A stretch of DNA of 35,065 nucleotides from a virus (lineage: Duplodnaviria > Heunggongvirae > Uroviricota > Caudoviricetes). The translations under genes were made by a program, and so were the position numbers. Below are positions 98-35,065 of the stretch, in pieces. Positions within the stretch are counted from its first letter, which is position 1. Each line of letters starts with the position of its first letter. The stretch lies in the IMG/VR virus record IMGVR_UViG_2778261624_000006; one strand, given 5' to 3'. The notes below the pieces were generated by a model, which was not told where the DNA came from, searched no databases, and saw only the letters and a program-made list of their open reading frames with translations.

Positions 98-673
98 CTA
101 CGGCAGTGCTGGCCATTCAATATCCTGTGCAGTTGACGTATCAACACGGTTCAGCAACACCCGATACTTTTTCCAGGCTTCCAGCAATGAGGTTTCTTCC
201 TCCGTTGCGATTTCCAGATCTACAGCATCCTGAAGTGGCGCAATATGCTCACTGGCTACCTGCATCAGGCTGTTTTTTGTTTCTTCCGCCTCTCGGATCC
301 GGAACAGTTTTTCTGCTTCTGCATCTTTCACCCAGGCTGTGCCGTTCCACTTCTGAAACTCCCCTTCCGGCGATAACCAGGTAACATTTTCCGGTAACGG
401 ACCGAGTTCAGAAATAAATAACGCGTCCCCTGACGCTACGTCATAAACCGTTTTACCCCGATGGTCTTCAACGAGATGCCACGATGCCTTATCACTGTTG
501 AAAACAGCCACAAAGCCAGCAGGAATATCTGGTGGTGCAATATCGGTACTGTTTGCTGGCAGACCTGTATGAGGCGGAATATATGCGTCACCTTCACCAA
601 TAAATTCATTAGTTCCGGCCAGCAGATTATAAATTTTTATGGTCCGTGGTTGTTCACTCATTCTGAATGCCAT
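98..673 (-). CDS. tfa: tail fiber assembly protein (Tfa)
   Basis: 191-aa ORF immediately downstream of and overlapping the side tail fiber gene; sequence recalled as lambdoid Tfa; stop TAG at 98-100. Confidence 0.85.
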
Positions 674-3639
674 TATGCAAGCCTCACAATATAGTTAAAT
701 GCGATGTTTTTGACGGTGTTTTCCGCGTTACCAGCAGCGTTAACGGTGATGGTGTGTCCATGTGAACCAATCGCAACGGAGTGCGTATGAGCACCAATAC
801 CGACAGTATGCGCGTGTGCACCTGCAGATGCTGCTGTGCCGGACAGTGAATGGCTATGATTACCATCTGTACTGGTATTCGCTAACCACCCCGTAGACAT
901 ACCTACTGAGCCTTGTACACCCCAGGTATTTTGACCTGAGCTTGTATAACCATATTGATAAGTATCTTTAAAAACACTGGGGTTAAATCGACGGCCATCT
1001 CTATGGCTGTGATTACCAGCTGCATTCGTGCTGCCACTTAAACTATGGGTATGCGCACCAGTGTTATTCGTGGATTTAGTGCCGTAATCAAACGACGATG
1101 TGGTTTTCGTCCCCAAATCCGTACTGGATGCGCTGGCGCTGTGGGTATGCGATTTAATGCCGTCCTGTTCCTGAGACAATACGGCCCGACCACTGGCAGG
1201 TTTGCCCTTAATCGTCCAGCCACGCATATCAGGGATCACGCCTGACGGATAAGCGGCTGCAAGTTTCGGGTATGCAGATTTGTCAAAAGTCTGCCCCTGC
1301 ATCAGGGCATAGCCAGACGGAACGGTATCTGATGGCCACGGGATTGGTGCGCCAGGCGGATAAAACTGCTCTGATGGCGTATAGAGTGAATAAACTGTAC
1401 CGTCCGTTAACCCTTCCGGCTTATTAGCAGAATATGCTGGTGACGTATGAATCGTCACGCTGGCATTACTGGTATAATCCCATTGAATATTTACACCAGT
1501 CGCATAATTTCCGATTGCAACGTAAATATCGTAAGTATCACCAGATGTATTGACCCAGGCAAAATTTGTAAACCCTGTCGATGTGCGCTGCCATAAAGCA
1601 CCAGTAATCCCCTTCGGATTACCATTACCTGCACGTAAAACAAGTTCAGATATACCTGCCTGTTGAGGTGACCCCACGTTAAATCCAGCGCCACCAATCA
1701 ACGTAATTGAAACAACAGAACTCGCCTGTGGCATGGTTACCGTTGCTAATTTGAACCAACCAGCACCACCGCTGAATGACATTGTTGTTGAGTTAAGCGT
1801 ACCAATATCTTTCGGCGTCAGTGTTATATCCGCTGAAAGCGCCTTACCATTCACCTTACGGGCAGAAGGTACCCGACCATTCGCATTGTCATTAGCTGCT
1901 TTCACTGCTTTCGGTGTCGCAGCAAGCGTTTCAGATGTGCTGTTGGTTGCACTACTGAGCTGGACAATTCCTTTTTGTGCTGTCGTAGCGTCCTGTGCGG
2001 TGTATTTCCCGTTAGCCAGGTCATACGCGGCCTTAACGGCTTTTGGCGTTGCCGCCTGTGACTCGGAAGTGCTGTTAGTCGCACTGCTGAGCTGAACTAT
2101 CCCTTTCTGTGCTGTCGTTGCATCCTGTGCGGTGTATTTCCCGTTAGCCAGGTCATACGCGGCCTTAACGGCTTTTGGCGTTGCCGCCTGTGACTCGGAA
2201 GTGCTGTTGGTCGCACTGCTGAGCTGTACTATCCCCTTTTTCGTCGTGCTCGCATCCTCAAGCGCCACGGCGGATGCAATATCCTCTGCCCGTTTTGCTG
2301 CTGTCTCGGCGCGCGTTGCCGCGGATTCCGCCGTACTTTTGCTCTGTGCTGCCGCTGCCGCACTGCCAGCAGCCTCTGTCGCCTTCGTGGATGCCGTCGT
2401 GGCGCTGCCCCTCGCTGCTGACGCCTGTCTGGTCGCCTCATCTTTTGAAGCAGACGCAGATGATGCCGATGACGCCGCCGAACTGGCGGACGATGCGGCA
2501 GCCGTTTTTGAGGATTCTGCGCTGGTTTCCGACGCTTTCGCGTTCGTTTCGGATGTCTTCGCTGCGGAAGCAGACCTCGCTGCTGCGCTGGCCTGTTCAG
2601 TGGCTTCGCCAGCCTTCGTTGTGGCTGTTGAAGCGGATGATGCGGCGCTTTCTGCCGATTTTCCGGCGGCGGTGGCACTGACTGCTGCCTCCTCTGCCTT
2701 AATGGACGCCTCACGGGCCGATGATGCAGCTGCTGTCTCAGAGTCTGCCGCAGCTGAGGCGCTCTGTTCCGCTGCCGTTTCAGAAGACCTGGCATTCGTC
2801 TCGGACGTTTTTGCCGCCTTCACGGAATTTCCTGCCGCCGTTGCCGAGGAGGCTGCACTGCTGGCGCTTGTGGAGGCGTTCGTTTCTGATGATTTTGCCG
2901 CCTCTTTGGAGGCCGCCGCATCTCTGGCTGAAGTGGCGGCTTCTGACGCTTTCGTCGTCGCAGTGGATGCAGAAGTGGCTGCTGATTTTTGTGACGCTGC
3001 AGCATTCGTTTCTGACGTTTTCGCCGCACCGGCACTGGTGGCCGCCGCGCTTTTTGAGGACTCTGCAGCGGCAGCACTTTTTGATGCTTCAGTGGCCTTT
3101 GTTGATGCCGTTCCTGCGCTGGAAGACGCCTCCTGAGCCGAAGTCGCGGCCTGTCCGGCTGACGTGCTGGCTGCACGCGCTGAGCCTGCAGCATCAGTCG
3201 CATGGGTTGCCGCCTCACGGGCAGATGTGCCGGCATCACTGGCTGACTTCTTCGCGGCTGCCGTGTTCTGTGCCACCGCGGACGCGTTACGCGTCACCTC
3301 TTCCACCATCAGTTCAAAACGGCGCAGAGCCTCCGGACGGGCATCATCCTCCGTCATGGCACCGAGAAAATCATTCAGCGTACCGGGTCGGGAATCTTCA
3401 TACACGGTGATGGTCCCGGCATGTGACGGCGGGAATCCTTCCACCAACAGAATAACGCTGTACTGACCGTACTCAACGTCCATGCTGTAACGCCCGGCTT
3501 CATCCGGATTTTCTGAGGCCAGCGTGTTCACCACCACCGTGGTGCTGTTACGTTTTGCTTTCAGCTGGATTGTGCAGTTCTGTACCGGTTTTCCTGTGCC
3601 GTCTTTCAGTACACCTGAAATCTTTACTGCCATATTCAC
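673..3639 (-). CDS. stf: side tail fiber protein (Stf), 988 aa, with long Ala/Ser/Thr-rich region, three tandem 45-aa repeats and His-rich HxH motifs near the C-terminus
   Basis: Single long ORF after lom in the lambda gene order; conserved N-terminus; repeat unit [44 protein letters not shown] seen three times; GAHTHS, GNHSHS and GAHAHT motifs. Confidence 0.85.
1837..2241. repeat. three tandem ~135-bp direct repeats inside stf (two near-identical copies ~1972-2106 and ~2107-2241, one diverged copy ~1837-1971)
   Basis: Direct reading of the DNA: the same ~135-bp string recurs back to back; encodes the 45-aa fiber repeat. Confidence 0.8.
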
Positions 3640-4367: not shown

Positions 4368-7300
4368 TCAACGAATACTGATGCCGGAAGACGCTTTTTT
4401 GGTCACAATCACCGTACAGTCGGTGATATTGCCTGCCCCCTGATTGCCTTTCTGGAAAATCTTAAACTCCAGAGTGACGCTACCACCACCACTAGGCATA
4501 TCAATAACTGCACTGTAATTTCCGCTCCCCGGATCGTCATACGCTATACCGTTAAAAATAATGGGCGGAATAATAATCTGGCGGTCAAAGTTATGATCAT
4601 CGCTGATGGTGACTGTAACCGTACCGTTTGGTGTTTCCGTGTTACCCCACGTACCGACTTTTTTCGGGAAGGCTTTTGATACAGCTTTAACGAAATCCCC
4701 TCTGACCAGGGTCGCCTCCAGCATGCCCTTAATCGTACAGTTCTGGTTAATCGTGACATTGTTGAGCGTTCCTGAGTTCGCATTCACACTACCACTGATA
4801 TCCGCATTTTTAGCGGTCAGCTTTCCGTCTGATGTCAGGGAAAATACCGGAGGACTGCCACCGCTGGTAATGGCGGGGGCTGTCAGGCGCTTCAGGAACA
4901 CGTCGTTCATGAATATCTGGTTGCCCTGCGCCACAAACATCGGCGTTTCATTCCCGTTTGCCGGGTCAATAAACGCGATACGGTTAGCGGCAACCAGAAA
5001 CTGGCTCAGTTTGCCTTCCTCCGTGTCCTCCATGCTGAGGCCAATACCCGCGACATAATGTTTGCCGTCTTTGGTCTGCTCAATTTTGACGCCCCACATG
5101 GCATTCCATTTATCGTTAGCGTCCTGCCACTCTTTCGAAAACTCATCCAGTCTGCTGGCGTTATCCTCCGTCAGATCAACTTTTTCCAGCAGCTCCTTGC
5201 CGAGATGGGATTCGGTTATCTTGCCTTTGAAAAAATCCAGGTAACCTTCCGCATCATCGCTCGCCCGACCGACGGCCTCCACGAATGCCGATTTGCCAAC
5301 GGTGTTCACACTGCGGATATAAAAGTAATAATCATGGCCCGGTTTGATATTGATACTGGCGGCTATCCAGTACAGCGCCGTACCAAGATAGCGGGCTGTG
5401 GTTTCTACCTGCCTGATATCGGTAATCCGCGTTTCCGAGAACCAGAACTCAAACTGTACCGTCGGGTCATAAACGGCAAGATGCGGCGTGGCGGTTATCT
5501 GAAAATAGCCCGGCGTCAGCTCAATCCGCGACGGCACTGCAGGTGCGGCAATCCGGAACGATACCGATGCCGGATCGCCCTGCTGCCCCCGGGCATTTAC
5601 CGCCCGGACTGTCAGCCTGTAGTTCCCCAGCGCCAGTTGCGTGAAGCGGTATGTGGTTTCCGCCGTCCGGGCTGTGCTGACCAGCCGCTCACTGCCGTCA
5701 TCCGCTGCCACGGTCAGGCGAAGCATGAAACTCACGCCCTTCACCACCTTCGGCGTATCCCAGCGAGCCAGTACCTGATACTCCCCGCTGTCTGCGGTAA
5801 CTTCGGCAGTCAGGTGCTGCACTGCTGGCGGCGTGACACCATTCACCGTGCCGCTCTGGTCGCCGTCAAAGTGCGCCCCGTTATCCACGATGGCTTCTTT
5901 TTCCGGTACATGCTGCACGGCGGTGATGGCATACGTGCCGTCGTCGTTCTCACGGATACTCACGCAGCGGAACAGGCGCTGGCGCAGCGTCGGCAGCTTC
6001 AGCCCCCACACGCTGTATCCGGCAACGCCGTCAGGAACACGGCTCACTTTTACCTTCACGCCGTCGGTGACGGACTGGACCTCCACGCTGACCGGATTGC
6101 CACTTCCGTCAACCAGGCTTATCAGCGTGGTACCGGAGGATGGCAGCGTGATTTCACGGTCGAGCGTCAGCGTCCGGATCTGGCTGTTTACCGCCAGCAC
6201 GCGCCCGCCGATGCTGATACCGGCATAGTCATCATCACAGATTTCAATGACATCGCCCGGCACATGGCGAAGCCCTTCTGCGCCCACGCTGAAGTCCACG
6301 GTCTGCGTTTCCAGCAGCTCCGTTTTAATCAGCCACAGCCCGGTTCGGTGTGCCTGCCCCCGGCTGGTACAGCCAAAGGCATCCATCTTCGTGACATTAC
6401 GACCGTAACGGGCAATGGCCTGCGTGTCCTCCACAAGCTCTGTTGCCGTTTCCCAGCCGTTATCCGGGTCAATCCAGTTCACCTCAACGGCATTATGGCG
6501 GTCCTTCAGGGCGCTGAAACTGTAGCGGAACGGCGCGCCATCATCCAGCATCACCACATTACTGCGGTTATAGGTCCACACCTTATCCGACGGCCGGTCC
6601 TGCACGAACGTCAGCGTCTGCCCGTTCCATACCGGCATACAGCGCATCGCCGAGCAGAAATCACTGAGCACATCCCACGCCTTACGCTGTGTGGTCAGGT
6701 ACGCATTACAGGTGATGCGCGGCTCCGTACCGCCAAAACCGTCCGGCACCGACTGGTCGCAGTACTGGCCGATGACATACAGCGCCCATTTATCCACATC
6801 TGCCGCACCAAGACGTTTCCCCATGCCGTAGCGCGGGTGGGTCAGCATATCCCACAGACACCAGGCCATGTTGTTGCTGTATGCCGGTTTTAACGTTCCG
6901 TCCCAGATACCGCTGTATTGCCGCGTCTGCGGGTTATAGTTCGACGGCACCTGCAGAATGCGCCCGCGAAGATGATAATTACGGCTCACCTGCTGGCTGC
7001 CGAACTGCTCCGAATCCACCTGTACGCCGACCAGTGCCGTATTCGGGTAGCACTGTTTCACATCGATGATTTCGGTGTATGACGACCAGAGCGTTTTGTT
7101 CTGCAGCTGGTCTGTGGTGCTGTCCGGCGTCATCCTGCGCATCCGTATATTGAACGGGCGCGGCGGCAGGTTACCCACCACCACCGAGGCCAGATACTGC
7201 GAGGTGGTTTTGCCCTTAATGGTGATGTCTTTTTCCGTCACCCAGCCACCATTACGCTGTATCTGAACCAGCAGGCGAACTTCCGACGGATTCCGGTCCC

Positions 7301-7682
7301 CCTTTGAGGTGGTTTCCACCAGTGCCTGCACACCGAAGGTAAAGCGCAGTCGGTCAATGTTTGCCGACGTGATGGTCCGGGTGATCGGCGTGTCGTATTT
7401 CACTTCCGTACCCAGCACCGTCTCGGAGCCGGAGGATTCAAATCCCTCCGGCGGTGTCTGCTCCTGCTCACCGGCCCGGAACACCACCGTGACGCCGGAG
7501 ATGTTGGTATTCCCCTCACTGTCCAGCACTGGCGTACTGTTCAGCAGCACGCTTTTTAATCCATCCACCGGACCTTCAACCGGCCCTTCGCTGATGGCAT
7601 CGATCACACTCAGCAACTGCGTGGACTTCAGGTTGTCCTTCGTTTCGCGCGGAGTATGCCCCTTACTGCTGCCTTTACCCAT
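4368..7682 (-). CDS. J: tail tip host specificity protein J (central tail fiber), 1104 aa; C-terminal region differs from lambda J
   Basis: N-terminal ~950 aa recalled as near-identical to lambda J; ATG at 7682; the last ~150 aa do not match my recollection of lambda J and the protein is 28 aa shorter. Confidence 0.95.
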
Positions 7683-14636: not shown

Positions 14637-15211
14637 CGCTTTATTACCATCCTCAGTTGATGCTGCAGCGCATAGCCCAGCTCTTTCGGAAGACGTTCAC
14701 GCCGTATCCGCTCAATATTTTGTTTAAACGCCGTGGTCAGCGGCACCGCCATCGGGATTTTCACCACATCAATGGGGTAACGGTTTTTCCCGGCCACACG
14801 CTGCATGACATGCCACCGGCCATTTTTCAGTTGCTGAATAAACGCGCCGGGAATACGACGGTTACCCACCACAAGCACGCTGCCGCCACCTTTCAGGGAT
14901 GAACGCTGCCCCTTTTTACGACGCCTGCGGCGCGAAAGGACAACCCGCGCATTACCCAGCTTGATTACGGGCAAATCCCCCCGGTTAACTTTGATTCTGG
15001 CCTGCGGATTTTTGACCGTGGCCCTTTTCAGCCTGGCCCTTTCCTTTACCAGTTTCCGGCGTACCTTTGTCTCACGGGCAACCTGTGACGCCGACTGCGA
15101 TATCGCGGATGAAGCAACGCGGTTAATGGCCATTGCGGCGGCACCAGGCACCGCCGTTTTGCTGATACGGCTGAGGTTTTCAACGGCCTGCTCAAGACCT
15201 TTTATGGCCAT
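14633..15211 (-). CDS. Z: tail completion protein Z
   Basis: 192 aa, basic protein, lambda Z length and position. Confidence 0.9.
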   Translation of the reverse strand: MAIKGLEQAVENLSRISKTAVPGAAAMAINRVASSAISQSASQVARETKVRRKLVKERARLKRATVKNPQARIKVNRGDLPVIKLGNARVVLSRRRRRKKGQRSSLKGGGSVLVVGNRRIPGAFIQQLKNGRWHVMQRVAGKNRYPIDVVKIPMAVPLTTAFKQNIERIRRERLPKELGYALQHQLRMVIKR

Positions 15212-15222
15212 ACATCCCCCTT

Positions 15223-15576
15223 TCAGCGGCGACGGTTAACGGCAGGCGGTACGCCCCGTCCAAGCCAGAGATGACAACTTCCGCCATCATCCGGCGAAAC
15301 CCGATCTACCCAGAAATTTTCCTCACCGATGGTCAGCGTGTCTCCACGCCGCAGCTGCCGCACCTCATCAGTCCGGACAAACAGGGACGGGCTGGAGCCT
15401 TCAACGCGCACGCCCTGTCCGGCATAGCTGATATTTTCAGGGTCATCAAAAACACCACGTATCACCGCACCTGACTGCTCACCGGATGTAATGGTGGCTG
15501 ACGTTCCCATGTACCCGCGTATCGTTTCATCGGCGCGGGCAATGGCAGCATCGAACAGGTTATCGAAATCAGCCAC
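15223..15576 (-). CDS. FII: head-tail joining protein FII
   Basis: 117 aa as lambda FII. Confidence 0.9.
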   Translation of the reverse strand: MADFDNLFDAAIARADETIRGYMGTSATITSGEQSGAVIRGVFDDPENISYAGQGVRVEGSSPSLFVRTDEVRQLRRGDTLTIGEENFWVDRVSPDDGGSCHLWLGRGVPPAVNRRR

Positions 15577-15587
15577 AGCGCCTCCCG

Positions 15588-15983
15588 TTATTGCATTCTG
15601 GCCAGGCCGCGCTCTGTCATTTCGGCTGCCACACCGGCAGAGACACGAAACGCCGTTCCCGGCAGCACAAATGCCACAGCCTCATCCCGCGTGGCGTGAA
15701 GTGCATCAGTATGCAGCGTCACCAGTGCCACAACCGTGACCAGATCAGCCGTATCAGTCACGGTATCCGGCTGCGCTGATACAACCTCATTTTCATGTCC
15801 GGTCAGCGCATTTTCCGGGCTGACAGATGTGTCCTGACCGGCAGCGTCATCCGTGTCATCAAGCTCCTCTTCCAGCTCTGCCACACGGAGCACCAGTTCT
15901 TCTTTCGTCCCCGTCAGGCTGACATCACGGTTCAGTTGCTCACCCAGCACCTGAAGACGGGCAATCAGTTCATCTTTCGTCAT
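15588..15983 (-). CDS. FI: DNA packaging protein FI (132-aa reading from MTKDELIAR; ORF track extends to 16022)
   Basis: Matches lambda FI from the internal Met; acidic linker region. Confidence 0.85.
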   Translation of the reverse strand: MTKDELIARLQVLGEQLNRDVSLTGTKEELVLRVAELEEELDDTDDAAGQDTSVSPENALTGHENEVVSAQPDTVTDTADLVTVVALVTLHTDALHATRDEAVAFVLPGTAFRVSAGVAAEMTERGLARMQ

Positions 15984-16024
15984 AGACTCCTCCACAGAGA
16001 GAAAATGGCCCCGAAGGGCCATGA

Positions 16025-17050
16025 TTACGCCAGTTGTACGGACACGAACGCATCAGGGTCAGCCAGCAGCATCAGCGGTGCTGACTGAATCATGGTGAAC
16101 TCACGCGCCGGATCGCCGGTGGTCACCCAGTTTTTCGGGTAGCGGGCAGAGGCGTTAATACCTTCGCGCTGTGCGTCCGCATCCTGAATGCAGCCATAGG
16201 TGCGCAGACCGCGTGCCTGAGTGTTCCCCAGCACCATCGTGTTGTCCGGAAGGAAGTTCTTTTTGACGTCGTTTTCCACGTACTGTCCGGAATACACGAC
16301 GATCGCCGTATCGCCATACATCCCCTTATAGGACACCGCTTCGCCCAGGTCTTTTACCGCTGTCTCCAGCTCGGAATTAGAGCCGCGACGGGTATCCAGC
16401 TTCTCCTTGACGGCTTTGAAGGAACGGAACAGCGCCCAGCCTTTCGGATCAAACACGATGATATTCACCACTCCGCTGGCGTTCAGCGCATAGGCTTCGA
16501 TATCGTCGGTCGGGTCATACGTGGACTTGTCACGCTTGCTCCACTCCGTACCACCGGACTGTGTGATGTTGTTCGCCGCACTGCGGCCCATATCCACCTC
16601 AACCGGATCGAAGGCTTCACCGGTCATGGTGTATTTGCCCTTAAGCACAGCAGAAACTGCCTGCATCTCTTCGACCTGAGCAATGGCCAGCTCTTCGTCT
16701 CGCATGTTCTGCATGATGATGCGACGGCGGCGGTAAGCCGGGTCCGCCAGATTCTGCGGATCTTCATCCGGCAGGCGACGCAGGGTCATCTGCGGATTCA
16801 CCTCATGCTTCGGCTTGACATATCCCGGTGTAAATTCAGAGGTGGAGCCGCCACGGGAGCGGATAACCTCACCGGAAACAATCGGCGAAACGTACAGCGC
16901 CATGTTTACCAGTCCCGGAATTTGTGAGAGATAGACTTTCTCCGTGGTGAAGGGATAGCTCTCACGGAAAAAGAGACGCAGAAACAGCGGATCAAACTTA
17001 AATTTCTTCTCATTTGCCGCCAGCAGCTGGGCGGTTGTGTACATCGACAT
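16025..17050 (-). CDS. E: major capsid protein E (341-aa reading from MSMYTTAQLL; ORF track extends to 17077)
   Basis: Near-identical to lambda E as recalled. Confidence 0.95.
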   Translation of the reverse strand: MSMYTTAQLLAANEKKFKFDPLFLRLFFRESYPFTTEKVYLSQIPGLVNMALYVSPIVSGEVIRSRGGSTSEFTPGYVKPKHEVNPQMTLRRLPDEDPQNLADPAYRRRRIIMQNMRDEELAIAQVEEMQAVSAVLKGKYTMTGEAFDPVEVDMGRSAANNITQSGGTEWSKRDKSTYDPTDDIEAYALNASGVVNIIVFDPKGWALFRSFKAVKEKLDTRRGSNSELETAVKDLGEAVSYKGMYGDTAIVVYSGQYVENDVKKNFLPDNTMVLGNTQARGLRTYGCIQDADAQREGINASARYPKNWVTTGDPAREFTMIQSAPLMLLADPDAFVSVQLA

Positions 17051-17105
17051 AAAAAAATCCCGTAAAAAAAGCCGCACAGGCGGCCTTTAGTGATGAAGGG
17101 TAAGG

Positions 17106-17438
17106 TTAAACGATGCTGATTGCCGTTCCGGCAAACGCGGTCCGTTTTTTCGTCTCGTCGCTGGCAGCCTCCGGCCAGAGCACATCCTCATAACGGAACG
17201 TGCCGGACTTGTAGAACGTCAGCGTGGTGCTGGTCTGGTCAGCAGCAACCGCCAGAATGCCAACGGCAGTACCGTCGGTGGTGCCATCCCACGCAACCAG
17301 CTTACGGGTGGAGGTGTCCAGCATCATCGGGGTCATTGCAGGCGCTTTCGCACTCAATCCGCCGGGCGCGGTTGCCGTATGTGCCGGGTCACTGTTGCCC
17401 AGCGGCTGGTAATGGGTAAAGGTTTCTTTGCTCGTCAT
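17106..17438 (-). CDS. D: head decoration protein D
   Basis: 110-aa reading from [12 protein letters not shown] matches lambda D. Confidence 0.92.
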
Positions 17439-17447
17439 AAACATCCC

Positions 17448-18053
17448 TTACACTGGTGTGTTCAGCAAATCGTTAACGGCATCAGATGCCGGGTTACCTG
17501 TAGCCAGCGGTGCCGGTGCCCCCTGCATCAGACGATCCAGCGCAGTGTCACTGCGCGCCTGTGCACTCTGTGGTGCAGCTGCCAGAATGCGGCGGGCCGT
17601 TTCCACGGTCATACCGGGGGTTTCTGCCAGCACGCGGGCCTGTTCTTCGCGTCCGTGAGCCTCCTCACAGTTGAGGATCCCCATAATGCGGCTGTTTTCT
17701 GCCGCAACCGCAGCGGTGATCTGCGCGTTCACGTCCGGCTGCGCCGCGCTGGCGTTTTCGCCCTCCGTCGCTGGCACCACGTCAGTAACGTCAGTCTGCG
17801 AAGCAGTGGCTGAAACAGTTGTTGATTGAGTCTCTTTGGTCATTCGCCCTCCTGAGAGACGGGATTTACGCGCATCCAGTGCATCACGCATGACGGTGAT
17901 CGCATCGGTGCTGTTAACAAGTTCATCAGCCAGTCCGGCATCAATGGCCTCCTGACCGCTGTACACTGCAGCCTCGGTATCCAGCACAGCCTGCACAGAC
18001 AGGCCGGTATATGCCGACACCTTCTGCGCAAACATCCGGCGGGTTGCGTCCAT
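17448..18053 (-). CDS. Nu3: scaffolding protein Nu3 (in-frame internal start within C)
   Basis: ATG at 18053 gives a 201-aa product (MDATRRMFAQ...) sharing the C stop, as in lambda. Confidence 0.8.
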   Translation of the reverse strand: MDATRRMFAQKVSAYTGLSVQAVLDTEAAVYSGQEAIDAGLADELVNSTDAITVMRDALDARKSRLSGGRMTKETQSTTVSATASQTDVTDVVPATEGENASAAQPDVNAQITAAVAAENSRIMGILNCEEAHGREEQARVLAETPGMTVETARRILAAAPQSAQARSDTALDRLMQGAPAPLATGNPASDAVNDLLNTPV

Positions 18054-18747
18054 CCGGGACTGCAGTGTCTCCCGGACGTCATCCGGAAGATGGCTGTAGG
18101 GATTGCCATCCACCTTATGGCTGCCGCTGTAAATCAGCGTGATTTCCACACCCTGTTTCTCCAGCGCAGCACCGTAATTACTGTGAGCCATCATGACGCC
18201 GATGGAGCCTGTCCGGGCGGTCTGCGTGACCAGACGCCGGGAGGCGGCACTGGCAAGCAGCTGACCTGCACTGCAGTTCATGTCGTTGGCCAGCGCCCAT
18301 ACCGGTTTTATGTCTCGCACACGGGCGATGATGTCAGCGCAGTCAAATGCCCCCGCCACCATTCCGCCTGGCGTGTCCATATCGAGCAGAATGCCGTCCA
18401 CCATCGGGTCGCTGGCAGCCTGTTGCAGACGGGCGATAATGCCGTTGTAACCGGTCATCCCCGAGTACGGCTGCAGCGCCCGCGTCCGGCTGACCAGCGT
18501 GCCGGACACCGGCAGCACGGCGATGCCGTTCATGACCTGATAACTGCGGGCCTGTCGTGGTCCGTCATCATCACCGGATAATGCCAGCGTCGCGAGTGCC
18601 TCCTGGGCAGTCAGGCTGTCGCCGGACACCGCATCCGTCAGGCGGCTGATCCCAAGCTGGCCTGCAAGCGCACAAAAGAAAACCCGCGCATAGGCGGGTT
18701 CAAGCATCAGCGGCTCATTAAAGGCCATGCTGGCAATATGCGGGAGA

Positions 18748-18767
<20 letters not shown>
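17448..18767 (-). CDS. C: capsid assembly protease C, GTG start
   Basis: Protein from (V)TAELRNLPHIASMAFNEP matches lambda C; GTG at 18767 preceded by a GAGGAGG Shine-Dalgarno; overlaps the B 3' end. Confidence 0.9.
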
Positions 18768-22448
<3,681 letters not shown>

Positions 22449-22474
<26 letters not shown>

Positions 22475-22994
22475 TCAGCAACCCCGGTATCAGTTCATCC
22501 AGCGCGGCTGCTTTGTTCATGGCTTTGATGATATCCCGTTTCAGGAAATCAACATGTCGGTTTTCCAGTTCCGGAAAACGCCGCTGCACCGACAGGGGGA
22601 TCCCGTCGAGAATACTGGCAATTTCACCTGCGATCCGCGACAGCACGAAAGTACAGAATGCGGTTTCCACCACTTCAGCGGAGTCTCTGGCATTTTTCAG
22701 CTCCTGTGCGTCGGCCTGCGCACGCGTAAGTCGATGGCGTTCGTACTCAATAGTCCCTGGCTGGAGATCTGTCTCGCTGGCCTGCCGCAGTTCTTCAACT
22801 TCCCGGCGCAGCTTTTCGTTCTCAATTTCAGCATCCCTTTCGGCATACCATTTTATGACGGCGGCAGAGTCATAAAGCACCTCATTACCCTTGCCACCGC
22901 CTCGCAGAACGGGCATTCCCTGTTCCTGCCAGTTCTGAATGGTACGGATACTCGCACCGAAAATGTCAGCCAGCTGCTTTTTGTTGACTTCCAT
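22449..22994 (-). CDS. Nu1: terminase small subunit Nu1
   Basis: 181 aa; N-terminal helix-turn-helix; matches lambda Nu1. Confidence 0.95.
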
Positions 22995-22999
22995 TGTTC

Positions 23000-23215
23000 A
23001 TTCCACGGCCAAAAACAGAGAAAGGAAACGACAAAGGCCCAAAAGTTCGTTTTCAGCACCTGTCGTTTCCTTTCTTTTCAGGGGGTATTTTAAATAAAAA
23101 CATTAAGTTACGACGAAGAAGAACGGAAACGCCTTAAACCGGAAAATTTTCATAAATAGCGAAAACCCGCGAGGTCGCCGCCCCGTAACCTGTCGGATCG
23201 CCGGAAAGGACCCGC
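23000..23215 (-). other. cos packaging site (cosB, cosN, cosQ region); 12-nt cohesive-end sequence at about 23172-23183
   Basis: Plus strand reads CCCGCGAGGTCGCCGCCCCGTAACCTG, the reverse complement of the lambda end joint with cohesive end GGGCGGCGACCT; the region up to Nu1 matches the lambda left end. Confidence 0.9.
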
Positions 23216-26023: not shown

Positions 26024-27106
26024 ATGAAAAAATTAACAGTGGCAATTTCTGCTGTAGCTGCATCAGTACTGATGGCGATGTCTGCTCAGGCAGCTGAAAT
26101 TTATAATAAAGACAGTAACAAGCTGGATCTATATGGGAAAGTTAATGCCAAGCACTACTTCTCCTCTAATGATGCAGATGATGGTGATACTACTTATGCC
26201 CGTCTTGGCTTCAAAGGTGAAACCCAAATCAACGATCAACTGACTGGTTTCGGTCAGTGGGAATATGAATTCAAAGGCAACCGCGCTGAATCTCAAGGCT
26301 CCTCCAAAGACAAAACCCGTCTTGCATTTGCAGGCCTGAAATTCGGGGACTACGGCTCAATCGATTACGGCCGTAACTACGGTGTAGCATATGACATCGG
26401 TGCGTGGACTGACGTTCTGCCAGAATTCGGTGGCGATACCTGGACCCAAACAGATGTGTTCATGACTGGTCGCACCACTGGTGTTGCAACTTATCGTAAC
26501 AACGACTTCTTTGGTCTGGTTGATGGTCTGAACTTTGCTGCTCAGTATCAGGGTAAAAATGACCGCACTGACGTAACTGAAGCTAATGGTGATGGTTTCG
26601 GTTTCTCCACTACTTATGAGTATGAAGGATTCGGTGTAGGTGCAACCTATGCTAAATCTGACCGCACTAATAATCAGGTTATCTACGGTAACAACAGCCT
26701 GAATGCATCTGGTCAAAATGCTGAAGTATGGGCAGCTGGTCTGAAATATGATGCGAACAACATCTATCTGGCTACCACCTATTCTGAAACCCAGAACATG
26801 ACTGTTTTTGGTAATAACCATATTGCCAACAAAGCACAAAACTTCGAAGTAGTTGCACAATATCAGTTCGACTTCGGTCTGCGTCCGTCCGTTGCTTACC
26901 TGCAATCTAAAGGAAAAGACTTGGGTGCGTGGGGTGATCAGGACCTGGTTGAATATATTGATGTAGGTGCAACCTATTACTTCAACAAAAATATGTCCAC
27001 TTTTGTTGATTACAAAATCAACCTGATTGATAAGAGCGATTTCACGAAAGCATCTGGCGTTGCTACCGATGATATCGTTGCTGTAGGTATGGTTTACCAG
27101 TTCTAA
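26024..27106 (+). CDS. nmpC: phage-encoded general porin (OmpC/OmpF family; NmpC/Lc-like)
   Basis: 360 aa; signal peptide ending AQA; 16-strand porin signature with C-terminal YQF; sits between Q and S on the opposite strand as in DLP12 and PA-2. Confidence 0.9.
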
Positions 27107-30608: not shown

Positions 30609-32135
30609 TCAAAAATAAACCTCACCATCAACCATATATTTGAGAGTACTTATCGCCTGCTGGGCGGATATTGTTTTCATTAAAGGATAGTGTTTAAAAA
30701 CAATGCCATTCATAAAATAGATATCACAGGTTTTATTATCTGTATTGATTATGATTTTTTCGAATGTTTTATAGGCAAGTGTACGACATAGCTCTCGCCC
30801 ATTTTTACTGGTTAAGTCAATAGCATGAAAATCACCAAGTGAACTCACCGCTTTACTCTTCAAAGTTTTTAATGATACAGAAGCCCTTCGTAATTCCTTA
30901 TCTAATACTCTGATTTTTTCTGCTATAGCGGTAACTTCAGGCGCAACAGATAATGCAGCAATTAAATTATTAATTTTCATGTGGAGCTCAATAATTTTCA
31001 ACTCTAAAGTTTCATTAGCATCTTTCTTGTTTTCAACTGGTTGGATTTTACTACAATTAAAAAGCAACTCATTAATGATATTATAATCAACCAAATCTCT
31101 CTTTATTGATGGCCTGTCACATCGATGCAGTCTTCTCATCGGACAAACATAATAGCCATGCAAACTTCCAGATACCGCATGAACAATCATGGTATTACCA
31201 CAAGCCTCGCACTTCATAACTGTTCGAAGTAGATTTATCAACATAGGATTTTTGCTACTATTGCTAATACCAAAAGGTGCCAACCGAATTTCCTGTACAG
31301 CGTAAAACAAATCATCTGATATGACTCTGGGATAATAGCCAGCGATTTCACTTATTCCTTTACCTCTTGCACGATATGAAGGTACGCATATACCTATCAG
31401 AGCTTTATTCGCTAATAATTTTTCAATTACAGAAGGTCCCCATGCACTTTCTTTTCCTGAGAAATTCTTTACAGCATGATCATTTAAATACTTGGCTATT
31501 GCATTCAATGAGCGCCTTTCCATCCTGAGTTTAAAAATTAGCTCAATAGTTTTCACCCTGTCGGGGTCTGGAACAAAAGCCGTTCTTTTGTCATCTAAGG
31601 AGAGCCATCTCGGACAAGACGCCGTCATAATCGTACCTGATTCCAGTGCATCCTGCCGTTTTTTCTTCCATGATAATTTAACCCGACTTGACTTTATCTC
31701 GCTTTCTTCATTTGCCCTTTGTGCTATAAGTATGGCTTTTATTAATGAATATGGCTCATTCAAAGAGTCAATATTATAGACTGTATTGTCGCAAAGAGTT
31801 ATAACATCAATACCGTGATTCAAAATCAATTTCAGACGTTCAATCGCTTCACCGACTTTTTCTCTTGAAAGTCTGTCCAGACTTTCAACTAACAATGTAG
31901 TTCCTGGCAATATATAACCATGCTCTATAGCATCTAAAAATTCCGAAAAAGCTCCTGATTGTGCATGCTTTCCTTTGAATGCACTTAATCCTAAATCTTC
32001 ATATGTTATGGTATCAAGATAATAATCACTATTTACCTTTAACCATTCAGCAATAAGTCTTCTCTGTCGGTTTAATGAGTCGCCAGACATCTGACCTGGT
32101 GATGAAAATCGCATATATGCTATGGCTTTTTTCAT
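30609..32135 (-). CDS. ybcK: large serine recombinase (resolvase-type catalytic domain, recombinase domain, zinc ribbon); YbcK-like
   Basis: N-terminal AIAYMRFSSPGQ...R motif of serine recombinases; Cys cluster CEACGNT...YYVCP...C; 508 aa, the typical large-serine-recombinase size. Confidence 0.85.
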   Translation of the reverse strand: MKKAIAYMRFSSPGQMSGDSLNRQRRLIAEWLKVNSDYYLDTITYEDLGLSAFKGKHAQSGAFSEFLDAIEHGYILPGTTLLVESLDRLSREKVGEAIERLKLILNHGIDVITLCDNTVYNIDSLNEPYSLIKAILIAQRANEESEIKSSRVKLSWKKKRQDALESGTIMTASCPRWLSLDDKRTAFVPDPDRVKTIELIFKLRMERRSLNAIAKYLNDHAVKNFSGKESAWGPSVIEKLLANKALIGICVPSYRARGKGISEIAGYYPRVISDDLFYAVQEIRLAPFGISNSSKNPMLINLLRTVMKCEACGNTMIVHAVSGSLHGYYVCPMRRLHRCDRPSIKRDLVDYNIINELLFNCSKIQPVENKKDANETLELKIIELHMKINNLIAALSVAPEVTAIAEKIRVLDKELRRASVSLKTLKSKAVSSLGDFHAIDLTSKNGRELCRTLAYKTFEKIIINTDNKTCDIYFMNGIVFKHYPLMKTISAQQAISTLKYMVDGEVYF

Positions 32136-32391: not shown

Positions 32392-32724
32392 TTAATGTGG
32401 TGTGCTTCGTGACAATAAATTAATAACCAACACACCGGCACAAATCAACATCATGCCTATAATGGCTGGCAGGTCCAGCCGTTGGCCGAAAAGTCCCCAT
32501 GACAGTAAGCTAATCAGGACAATACCGACTCCTGACCAGATAGCATAAGCAATCCCTGTAGGAATATAAGCCAGCGTCTGAGCTAATAACCAGAATGATG
32601 CACAATAACAAATAATTGTACCAACAGATGGCCATAACCGTGTAAAACCTTCTGAAAACTTCATTAAGGTTGTACCAATGACCTCTGCAAGTATTGCACC
32701 ACCAAGATAAATATAAGGGTTCAT
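32392..32724 (-). CDS. emrE: SMR-family multidrug efflux transporter EmrE (110-aa reading from MNPYIY; ORF track extends to 32778)
   Basis: Four-transmembrane SMR protein with conserved Glu in TM1 (AILAEVIGT); matches E. coli EmrE as recalled. Confidence 0.92.
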   Translation of the reverse strand: MNPYIYLGGAILAEVIGTTLMKFSEGFTRLWPSVGTIICYCASFWLLAQTLAYIPTGIAYAIWSGVGIVLISLLSWGLFGQRLDLPAIIGMMLICAGVLVINLLSRSTPH

Positions 32725-32791
32725 AGAATATTCTTTCCTGTTCAAACTGGAGAGAATTGTACTACAGTTTGAACTCAACTCACCTGTTTCA

Positions 32792-33094
32792 TCATTGTGT
32801 ACCCATTGATGTTCTTTTATATACCCTCAATACCCGTTTCATCGCGGCACTCTGGCGACACTCCTTAAAAATCAGATTCGTGCTCACCTTTCCTTCCCGT
32901 TCTTCTCTGGTAGCAAACCGGTAATACACCGTTCGCCAGACCTTACCTTCGATAACCAGAAGACCTGCCCGTGCCATTTTAGCCGCAGCCTGATTTATGC
33001 TGGTTACCGTTGCGCCTGTTACCGCGGCAACGTCCTGCGCACAGAATTTCTTATGAGTCCCCAGGTAATGAATAATTGCCTCTTTGCCCGTCAT
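32792..33094 (-). CDS. ren: Ren-like protein
   Basis: 100 aa; matches lambda Ren over most of its length as recalled; immediately follows P with an ATGA overlap. Confidence 0.8.
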   Translation of the reverse strand: MTGKEAIIHYLGTHKKFCAQDVAAVTGATVTSINQAAAKMARAGLLVIEGKVWRTVYYRFATREEREGKVSTNLIFKECRQSAAMKRVLRVYKRTSMGTQ

Positions 33095-33792
33095 ACCCTT
33101 GCTCCTTTCAGCCCAAACTTAGCTTTGATTTCTGCGATCTTCGCCAGAGCCTGTGCACGATTTAGAGGTCTACCGCCCATGACAGGAAGTTGTTTTACTG
33201 GTTCAGGTATAGCCTCACCACGGTTAATTCGTGCGGTCATACAGGACAGTTCATCGGCAGCCTTGCGCCGTAATTCCGCGTCAGTCAACGCATTGGCCCG
33301 CATGTTCTGATACAGGTTGGTAACCAGCCAGTAGTGCGCGTTTGATTTCCACGGATAAGACTCTGCATCCGGATACAGCCCGCGCTTCCGGCAATACTCG
33401 TAAACCATATCAACCAGCTCGCTGGCGTTTGGCAGCCCGGCGGTAACGGATGCTTCTTCCCGGCACCAGGCGACAAACTGCCCGGGTGATGGCAGGAATG
33501 GTCGATTCTGCCGACGGGCTACGCGCATTCCAGCGTTAACCTGTTCCATTGTGGTGATCCCGTTTTCCCGGAAAGCCAGCACCCACTGGCGGCGGATTTC
33601 GTTCAGTTCATTCTGGTCACGGTTAGCCAGGCTCGCCGGGAAAGTTGCCAGTAACTGGCTGAACACACCATTGATGATCTGCGCTACCTGCTGTACCTGA
33701 GGCTTTTCGTCGTACTGTTCCGGCATGTTGTTGGCGATCCGACGCATCTGCTCACGGTCAAAGTTAGTCATCTGTGCGGCGATGTTTTTCAT
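33091..33792 (-). CDS. P: replication protein P (DnaB helicase loader)
   Basis: 233 aa, lambda P length; follows O with overlapping stop and start. Confidence 0.9.
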   Translation of the reverse strand: MKNIAAQMTNFDREQMRRIANNMPEQYDEKPQVQQVAQIINGVFSQLLATFPASLANRDQNELNEIRRQWVLAFRENGITTMEQVNAGMRVARRQNRPFLPSPGQFVAWCREEASVTAGLPNASELVDMVYEYCRKRGLYPDAESYPWKSNAHYWLVTNLYQNMRANALTDAELRRKAADELSCMTARINRGEAIPEPVKQLPVMGGRPLNRAQALAKIAEIKAKFGLKGARV

Positions 33793-34808
33793 AGATCCAC
33801 CCCGTAAATCCAGTCTGTGTTTGTCAGGTCGAGTTTTGGTTTGCTAGCTGTCACGCCTGCCTGTTGCTTGTTACGGTTGATTTCGAGTTGGGTCCACTTG
33901 TCGCGGAGTTTGGCCGGACTTAGCACGTTACCGGACCAGAAGTTGTCCTGGCATGCCCAGCGGAACAGCACGCACATGTCGCGGTGGTTACGTCCGTCAC
34001 GTTCACGCATCAGGCGGATATCGTTAGCCCACCCTGCAAAATTCGGTTTTCTGGCTGATGGCGCGATGGTCTTCACCATGTCAAACATCCACTCTGCGGC
34101 GGTCAGGTCTTCTGCTGTCCCCCACCTGCTGCCGCTCTGAATTGCAGCATCTGGTTTCTCCACAGGAAGGTCGTTTTCTGGCTGGTCAGAGGATTCGCCA
34201 GAATTCTCGGACGAAAAAGGTTTTATATTGTCTTTTGTTAGTTTGTCTTTTGTGTTTACCTGATTCGGGTAAACGTCTTTACCTGATTTGGGTAAACTTT
34301 TTTTACCTGATTCAGGTAAATTTACCTCTTTCAGGTAAACTTTATTTTTCTTACCTGATTCGGGTAATGTTGACCATTCACTGACCACATTATTAATGCC
34401 GGTATTCCGCCCGCTCTGAATAAGAATCCCACGCTTTACCAGAACACTTTTTGCAGCAGAACATTTGTGCGGCAATATCCCGGTCAATTCGGACAGTTGC
34501 TCGTTGCTCACCCAATCCTGTTTTTTATTAAAGCCATATGTTTTGCGCATGACAGCTAGGAAGACCAGAAGCTGGTGCTGTGTTAATCCGGCCAGCATCA
34601 CAGCTTCCAGCAACTCATTTGCAATGCGCGTATAACCATCATCGAGATCTGCCACGCGCGGCTCCTTTTGTGCCGCATCCGGCACTGGAAAATTGAATAT
34701 CTCAGCAGTGTTTGCCATAATTCCTCCCGCAATGAGTGTGTTACGATTTGCACCTGAAAGTCGGTTCTGTTCCAGCAGACCGGCTTTCGCCATTTCTGAA
34801 CCTGTCAT
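33789..34808 (-). CDS. O: replication initiator O (non-lambda specificity type), contains the origin iterons
   Basis: N-terminal region resembles lambda O; iteron-encoded LPESGK repeats in the middle; the start ATG overlaps the stop of the upstream gene. Confidence 0.85.
   Translation of the reverse strand: MTGSEMAKAGLLEQNRLSGANRNTLIAGGIMANTAEIFNFPVPDAAQKEPRVADLDDGYTRIANELLEAVMLAGLTQHQLLVFLAVMRKTYGFNKKQDWVSNEQLSELTGILPHKCSAAKSVLVKRGILIQSGRNTGINNVVSEWSTLPESGKKNKVYLKEVNLPESGKKSLPKSGKDVYPNQVNTKDKLTKDNIKPFSSENSGESSDQPENDLPVEKPDAAIQSGSRWGTAEDLTAAEWMFDMVKTIAPSARKPNFAGWANDIRLMRERDGRNHRDMCVLFRWACQDNFWSGNVLSPAKLRDKWTQLEINRNKQQAGVTASKPKLDLTNTDWIYGVDL
34205..34370. repeat. replication origin: five ~19-bp iterons (TTACCTGATTCGGGTAAAC type) plus adjacent AT-rich tract, inside O
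   Basis: Direct reading: repeated palindrome-containing units at about 34255, 34278, 34303, 34321 and 34350, with a T-rich tract at about 34210-34250. Confidence 0.8.
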
Positions 34809-35065
34809 ATCGCCCCCAGCATGGTAGTAACCATCGCCATCAATGGACCAGCCAGATCTGGGTCCACACGAAACATCGACACAATACCTTCACTAATTTC
34901 CTTCAGTTTCTGGTGGCGTGGTGCGTTGAGAATGACAGCCTGTTTTGCCTCACTGAGTTCCTTTTCCATTTCAGCCAACCTAGCCATGAAGCTATCCTGC
35001 TCAACCAGGTAACCGCGATATTCCAGCGGTAGTACCGCCAGAATTGCCGGGGTCAGTTCACGCAC
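34805..35065 (-). CDS. partial CDS (5' end beyond window) in the cII position; not lambda cII, possibly YdaT-like
   Basis: ORF runs off the window edge; the C-terminal 86 aa do not resemble lambda CII; motif PAILAVLP recalled from YdaT-family proteins. Confidence 0.45.
   Translation of the reverse strand: MRELTPAILAVLPLEYRGYLVEQDSFMARLAEMEKELSEAKQAVILNAPRHQKLKEISEGIVSMFRVDPDLAGPLMAMVTTMLGAI

Follow-up and report, generated by a model that had tools for sequence, protein, structure and literature searches.

An in-frame deletion in the receptor-binding domain of a 434-type tail tip protein J in a DLP12-like prophage

The 35,065-nt stretch of viral DNA analyzed here (the window) holds a lambdoid prophage whose gene J, coding for the central tail fibre or tip attachment protein, ends in a C-terminal region that differs from lambda J and makes a protein shorter than that of lambda. 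As this part of J meets the receptor, the locus raises the question of whether the short and divergent C-terminus is an alternative receptor-binding allele in its own right or a known allele that has lost a part. The first-pass annotation had favored the former and expected the phage to use an outer-membrane receptor other than LamB.

The gene is found at 4368..7682 on the minus strand as a 3315-nt open reading frame of 1104 aa, identified by its translation and by Pfam and NCBIfam matches. Its product matches six Pfam families in order (FNIII-A_GpJ, Phage-tail_3, Ig_J, Ig_J_second, Phage_Tail_Tip, and Ig_GpJ_C) and scores 2226 bits against the NCBIfam model lambda_TipJ (NF049904), for which the cut-off is 1950. 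The window reads the prophage backwards, with the order Nu1-A-W-B-C-D-E...H-M-L-K-I-J-lom-stf-tfa, and the placement of J after H-M-L-K-I and before lom and stf/tfa agrees with the annotated clusters of phage 434, lambda, and the prophage of Escherichia coli KSC207. Judged by its sequence, J belongs to the lambda TipJ family.

We aligned J with the J proteins of lambda (NC_001416, 1132 aa), 434 (1137 aa), and mEp460_ev081 (1137 aa). In comparison with lambda, 45 to 50 of the 50 positions are identical in each 50-column block up to column 950, giving a protein identity of ~97% up to residue ~950, while the last four blocks have 38/50, 21/50, 6/49, and 12/43 identical positions. The DNA follows the same pattern: J nt 1–2820 (aa 1–940; 4863..7682, minus strand) are 95.3% identical to lambda and 96.0% to 434 and comprise the hub domains, the FNIII domains, the helical shaft, and most of the beta-prism fibre, whereas from nt 2821 to the end the identity to lambda is 63%. 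The break falls at J nt ~2820–2880, that is, at ~4803–4863 of the window. Within this junction zone (J nt ~2821–2880, aa ~941–960; 4803..4862, minus strand), identities computed in 60-nt windows begin to fall against lambda but stay at 59 to 60 of 60 against 434. The earlier description of J as lambda-like over ~950 residues, non-lambda over the last ~150, 28 aa shorter than lambda J (1104 versus 1132 aa), and joined within the gene thus holds, and, given the position of the break, its stretch 4368–4830 was the right one. Over lambda residues ~960–1132, J lacks the identity to lambda J that would mark a LamB-type allele.

The source of the non-lambda end is a common one. Among 50,697 phage records, the best whole-gene matches are mEp460_ev081 (97.0%), phage 434 (96.3%), and the lambda h434 hybrids, each aligned as two pieces that cover 3414 nt of the record and 3315 nt of the window. 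The last 533 nt of J are 97–99% identical to these phages (97.2% to 434), again in two pieces, here spanning 632 nt. The specificity region itself, the last ~145 codons (4368..4802, minus strand), delimited by its DNA identity to 434 and mEp460_ev081 and holding the deletion described below, has DNA identities of 98.2% to 434 J and 98.7% to mEp460_ev081, computed over the last 533 nt at the aligned positions of the two pieces. The pairwise alignments that had been proposed as a check therefore place the C-terminus far from lambda and at 98.2% DNA identity to 434. Of 5,426 complete E. coli genomes, 2,725 match the J 3' end, at up to seven places per genome, and in 2,071 the match extends over 80% or more of the query; the 434-type allele is present in at least 38% of these genomes. 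The high identity of the last ~150 codons to 434 J identifies the C-terminus, at the sequence level, as a phage 434/mEp460-type receptor-binding allele. Two other identities were considered: the A8 or 1A2 allele was rejected, as the C-terminal half aligns weakly to A8, and an unknown allele was rejected in view of the 98% DNA identity to the 434 type.

Lambda phage in which the 434 gene takes the place of J binds OmpC, the receptor of 434 (PMC11101478, introduction), and lambda particles have been retargeted to OmpC with J C-termini of natural prophages joined at lambda residue 964 (PMC11338833). By analogy, J would belong to the 434 class, whose receptor is OmpC and not LamB. With the literature on 434 J, on OmpC-retargeting chimeras, and on the 9WCB complex, both the mosaic build of the gene and its switch in receptor class belong to established knowledge; the 434-type receptor swap is well known, and there is nothing new in kind here.

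What the 434 assignment does not account for is the length. The 434-type J is 5 aa longer than that of lambda, and the shorter length is thus not a trait of an alternative receptor allele, as had been suggested. Protein and DNA alignments agree on one clean gap of 33 codons as the sole length difference from the 1137-aa allele, and the 5 additional residues minus these 33 give the 28-aa shortfall. The in-frame loss of 99 bp joins J nt 3164 and 3165 (4518..4519, minus strand) and takes out residues 1056–1088 of 434 J (NPGGTRYTGYGFEVRKNGVLIASRETKGAIPGS), which align with lambda J 1048–1079.

The deleted residues lie within the Ig_GpJ_C receptor-binding domain (PF12421), which in the window covers aa 1001–1104 (4371..4682, minus strand) and is internally truncated. 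The Pfam match is split into two stretches with a score of 66 bits, whereas in an undeleted relative (P0123) it forms a single stretch over profile positions 1–134 of 135 with 88 bits; the complete and uninterrupted domain of the 434 type is thus not found in this copy. The conserved DRQ motif is 72 aa away from the C-terminus, compared with 100–106 aa in the 109 complete relatives. Across 56 aligned and diverse J C-termini, two residues of the missing segment are invariant (V250 and G254), and three more, Y243, N253, and I257, are conserved in at least 90% of the sequences (P0001 numbering).

The structural extent of the loss was approached by modelling the C-terminus with and without the deletion as an AlphaFold monomer; these models are informative for the core of the domain, but the fibre part is modelled poorly as a monomer (mean pLDDT 58–61). 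In the undeleted model, the block pLDDT over the deleted stretch is 88–96. This stretch (237–269) spans the modelled strands 240–243, 245–252, and 255–261, the NG turn between the latter two, the next loop, and the first two residues of strand 268–275. Residues with pLDDT of at least 90 number 54 in the undeleted model and none in the deleted one, although the latter, with block pLDDT of 63–85, retains a partly ordered domain in the prediction. The undeleted model matches the OmpC-bound A8 domain (9wcb_F) with a TM score of 0.68 (E 4e-16), the deleted model with 0.47. At E ≤ 0.001, the undeleted model has 34 structure matches and the deleted model 6, all of them gpJ chains; generic beta-sandwich folds are no longer matched by the deleted model at this threshold. 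The proposed check by structure prediction thus has a divided outcome: the undeleted 434-type C-terminus resembles the OmpC-bound A8 domain, but the deleted version does so less well. According to the models, the Ig-like domain would lose three core beta-strands as well as most of two variable loops.

The receptor-binding domain of gpJ contacts its receptor through four "bottom" loops (PMC11101478), and four indel and variability hotspots have been reported in J, at lambda residues 1012, 1048–49, 1077–78, and 1107 (Maddamsetti et al. 2018, PMC6646904). The alternation of variable loops and conserved segments in the alignment, the secondary-structure model, and these hotspots together suggest that the second half of loop L2, the whole hairpin above, and L3 are lost.

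The deletion appears in a single assembly. The exact protein, WP_089599710.1, is found on one contig only, NLTT01000033.1 of the E. coli draft genome GCA_002233175.1, of which the window is an exact piece. The initial protein search returned mostly fragments and 90%-identity clusters, from which deletion alleles could not be counted; the cluster of WP_089599710.1 has 766 members, and the complete ones among those listed are 1137 aa long. A 52-mer across the junction, designed so that neither half alone seeds a match, failed to match any of the 5,426 complete E. coli genomes and 50,697 phage records; a junction-spanning 34-mer found nothing in 185,579 species-representative genomes, IMG/VR viral contigs, and JGI metagenome contigs. 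The best 60 E. coli matches to the last 533 nt all have the undeleted 632 nt. These comparisons mark the shortening as a deletion private to this copy and not a property of the 434-type allele. Two private substitutions in the receptor-binding domain were also identified by comparison with relatives, Q992L (434 numbering; position 4708, minus strand), at a site that is Q in 124 of 127 relatives, and A1131S near the C-terminus (position 4391, minus strand); they would fit relaxed constraint, their number being too small for a test.

The breakpoints share 1 nt of microhomology. No direct repeat is present at them, and from J nt 2801 to the end (the 3' ~600 nt) no 9-mer occurs twice. With so little microhomology and no repeated 9-mers, the event looks like illegitimate recombination, and a collapse by the assembler is unlikely. 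Slippage or collapse via an imperfect 8-mer near both ends (CCCGGGAG and CCCGGTAG) was considered and rejected: the copies are 88 nt apart and out of register, and would not produce the observed junction.

We consider it about 75% probable that J is a 434-type, OmpC-class gene with a private deletion from illegitimate recombination, and that this represents loss of function and early prophage decay rather than new specificity. Most likely, the deletion cripples or strongly alters the receptor-binding domain. In the proposed course of events, illegitimate recombination would give rise to the private in-frame 99-bp deletion, excising the beta-hairpin between two variable loops together with most of both loops. 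As the N-terminal 1000 residues are intact, and so are the conserved strands at the C-terminus, the J trimer would still assemble into the tail tip, but its receptor-binding domain would be misfolded or deprived of half of the binding face. A trimer without these strands and loops should be unable to bind OmpC productively, and virions would then form, yet with poor or no adsorption or ejection, an early step in the decay of an otherwise intact DLP12-like prophage. If it is decay, it is recent, as the other head and tail ORFs keep the lengths of their KSC207 counterparts. The expectation of a different outer-membrane receptor can thus be upheld in part: the specificity region is not of the LamB type and the 434 allele is reported to use OmpC, so that use of a different receptor was probably true of the ancestors of the prophage, but this copy may well not bind any receptor.

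Some features speak against loss of function. The reading frame is preserved across the deletion and nothing downstream is lost, the conserved C-terminal strands included, as would be expected of a tolerated or selected change, and the excision of a hairpin from loop to loop is the topologically mildest way of shortening a beta-sandwich. The shortened domain might thus be a functional, minimal one, whose remodelled face changes the specificity for the receptor or OmpC variant, or the triggering of ejection. Such a reading draws on the borders of the deletion, which fall at the natural J indel hotspots 1048–49 and 1077–78 (PMC6646904), on the remaining tail genes being intact and nearly identical to those of KSC207, and on Q992L and A1131S, which could be compensatory. 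It also draws on a second in-frame J deletion among 120 listed homologues. This independent case from another E. coli assembly (P0031, L006 1-404; GCA_949281425.1, contig CASDMB010000051.1) lacks 129 bp, or 43 codons, at the same place in the receptor-binding domain of a 434-type J, starting 10 nt upstream and ending 20 nt downstream of the deletion in the window, with 5 SNPs belonging to another allele directly after it. Without selection, two events would both be in frame with a probability of 1 in 9, and the coincidence is thus only a hint of function; moreover, P0031 is on an 819-nt contig and its deletion is possibly an assembly artefact. Against a functional minimal domain stand the loss of family-invariant core residues and of the three strands predicted with the highest confidence, the singleton status among thousands of 434-type copies, the constant domain length in all 109 complete relatives, and the natural indels of the literature, which are short loop changes without removal of strands. 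The evidence points away from a functional deleted domain, and we regard it as unlikely. A broader idea, with the 99-bp and 129-bp deletions as its two examples, holds that the gpJ hairpin between two receptor-contact loops is dispensable, and that in nature J repeatedly arrives at a remodelled, smaller binding face with new specificity for a receptor or OmpC variant by in-frame excision from loop to loop; it appears very unlikely.

The deletion could also be an artefact of sequencing or assembly, and the true prophage would then have an ordinary 1137-aa 434-type J. Its occurrence in one draft assembly only would agree with this, as would the several J copies of E. coli genomes, which can confuse assemblers, and the short contig of the second case. 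However, the 48.8-kb contig is colinear with the prophage of a complete genome on either side of the junction, the breakpoints lack a repeat of k-mer size that would cause a collapse (the microhomology being 1 nt), and the loss amounts to exactly 33 codons, which together make an artefact quite improbable. The first-pass reading, a distinct and naturally shorter J allele adapted to a non-LamB outer-membrane receptor, is right about a non-lambda C-terminus from an allele reported to use OmpC (PMC11101478). The normal 434-type length of 1137 aa nevertheless exceeds the 1132 aa of lambda, the shortness comes down to one private gap, and no population of short alleles was seen in the genomes, phage records, and contig sets searched; as an account of the length, it is scarcely credible.

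The surroundings of J were compared with the nearest prophage, that of E. coli KSC207, which is of the DLP12 type, adjoins ompT/envY/nfrA, and runs colinear with the window over its full 35 kb. The 99-bp gap is the only indel longer than 2 nt between the two, and J otherwise differs at six positions. Three of the differences are within 29 nt (7146–7174, minus strand; J codons 170–179: D170G, S178N, and one synonymous) and look like one short patch brought in by recombination, not like separate mutations. Across the window, the tail, lysis, and accessory regions have 0–4 differences per kb, while the head/terminase block has 7–29 and the replication genes 12–33 per kb (15000–23000 and 33000–35065); this uneven divergence points to mosaicism through recombination among prophages that are otherwise nearly identical. 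Small compensating indels (−1, −2, −1, and +1 nt) are seen at 15755–15952 (minus strand) in the DNA-packaging FI-like gene (15588–16022), shifting the frame for a few codons in two short stretches while the ORF stays open. The side tail fibre gene (673–3639, minus strand) codes for 988 aa, much longer than lambda Stf, and has no NCBIfam match; at 1931–2239 it contains two adjacent segments of ~177 nt with 92% identity, an internal tandem duplication. A large serine recombinase gene (ybcK-like, 508 aa; 30609–32135, minus strand) and emrE, for an SMR multidrug efflux protein (32392–32778, minus strand), are present as in DLP12. An intact gene for a 360-aa porin is located at 26024–27106 (plus strand), between a Q-like antiterminator and the lysis genes; it scores 518 bits against the NCBIfam model "porin OmpC" and corresponds to nmpC of DLP12, the KSC207 counterpart being annotated as "porin OmpC." Phage porins of the PA-2 lc and DLP12 nmpC kind accompany down-regulation of OmpC, and such down-regulation would fit a phage with a J of the OmpC-binding type.

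For annotation, the appropriate label for J is a 434-type (OmpC-class) allele whose receptor-binding domain has an internal deletion, not a new receptor specificity, and the case illustrates how a difference in length from lambda can conceal a lesion instead of an adaptation. Were the deleted domain functional, it would mean that the Ig-like domain of gpJ tolerates the loss of a whole hairpin, which would be relevant to the engineering of gpJ chimeras for DNA delivery.

Among known systems, J is closest to 434 J (UMO75286.1) and its kin in the lambda h434 hybrids, mEp460_ev081, and many E. coli prophages, with 96–97% DNA identity over the whole gene and 97–99% in the specificity region; all share the lambda-like N-terminal ~950 residues and the neighborhood I–J–lom–stf–tfa. 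Unlike 434 J, the J of the window is without residues 1056–1088 and has Q992L and A1131S. With the LamB-binding lambda J (NP_040600.1; structures 8XCK and 8XCJ) it has in common the domain architecture and the C-terminal Ig-like family PF12421, whereas the specificity region has 63% DNA identity and different loops, the 434-type receptor being OmpC and not LamB (PMC11101478). Its mosaic junction zone matches lambda aa 964, the position at which published chimeras were joined (PMC11338833). The A8 gpJ chimera, solved with OmpC (PDB 9WCA and 9WCB), and the 1A2 allele (PMC11338833) are likewise natural prophage J C-termini that use OmpC; A8, however, is full length and a different allele, to which the segments after the deletion align as a separate stretch with 24.6 bits. 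The borders of the deletion coincide with two of the four J indel hotspots, lambda 1048–49 and 1077–78 (PMC6646904), but the indels described there are short and clade defining, whereas here the 30 residues between two hotspots are gone in a singleton. Finally, the KSC207 prophage has a locus like that of DLP12, the defective prophage of E. coli K-12, and the same accessory genes as DLP12 and phage PA-2, those in common with DLP12 being emrE, ybcK, rusA, quuD, an nmpC-like porin gene, and essD/rrrD/rzpD; unlike DLP12, the prophage in the window has kept a complete set of head and tail genes.
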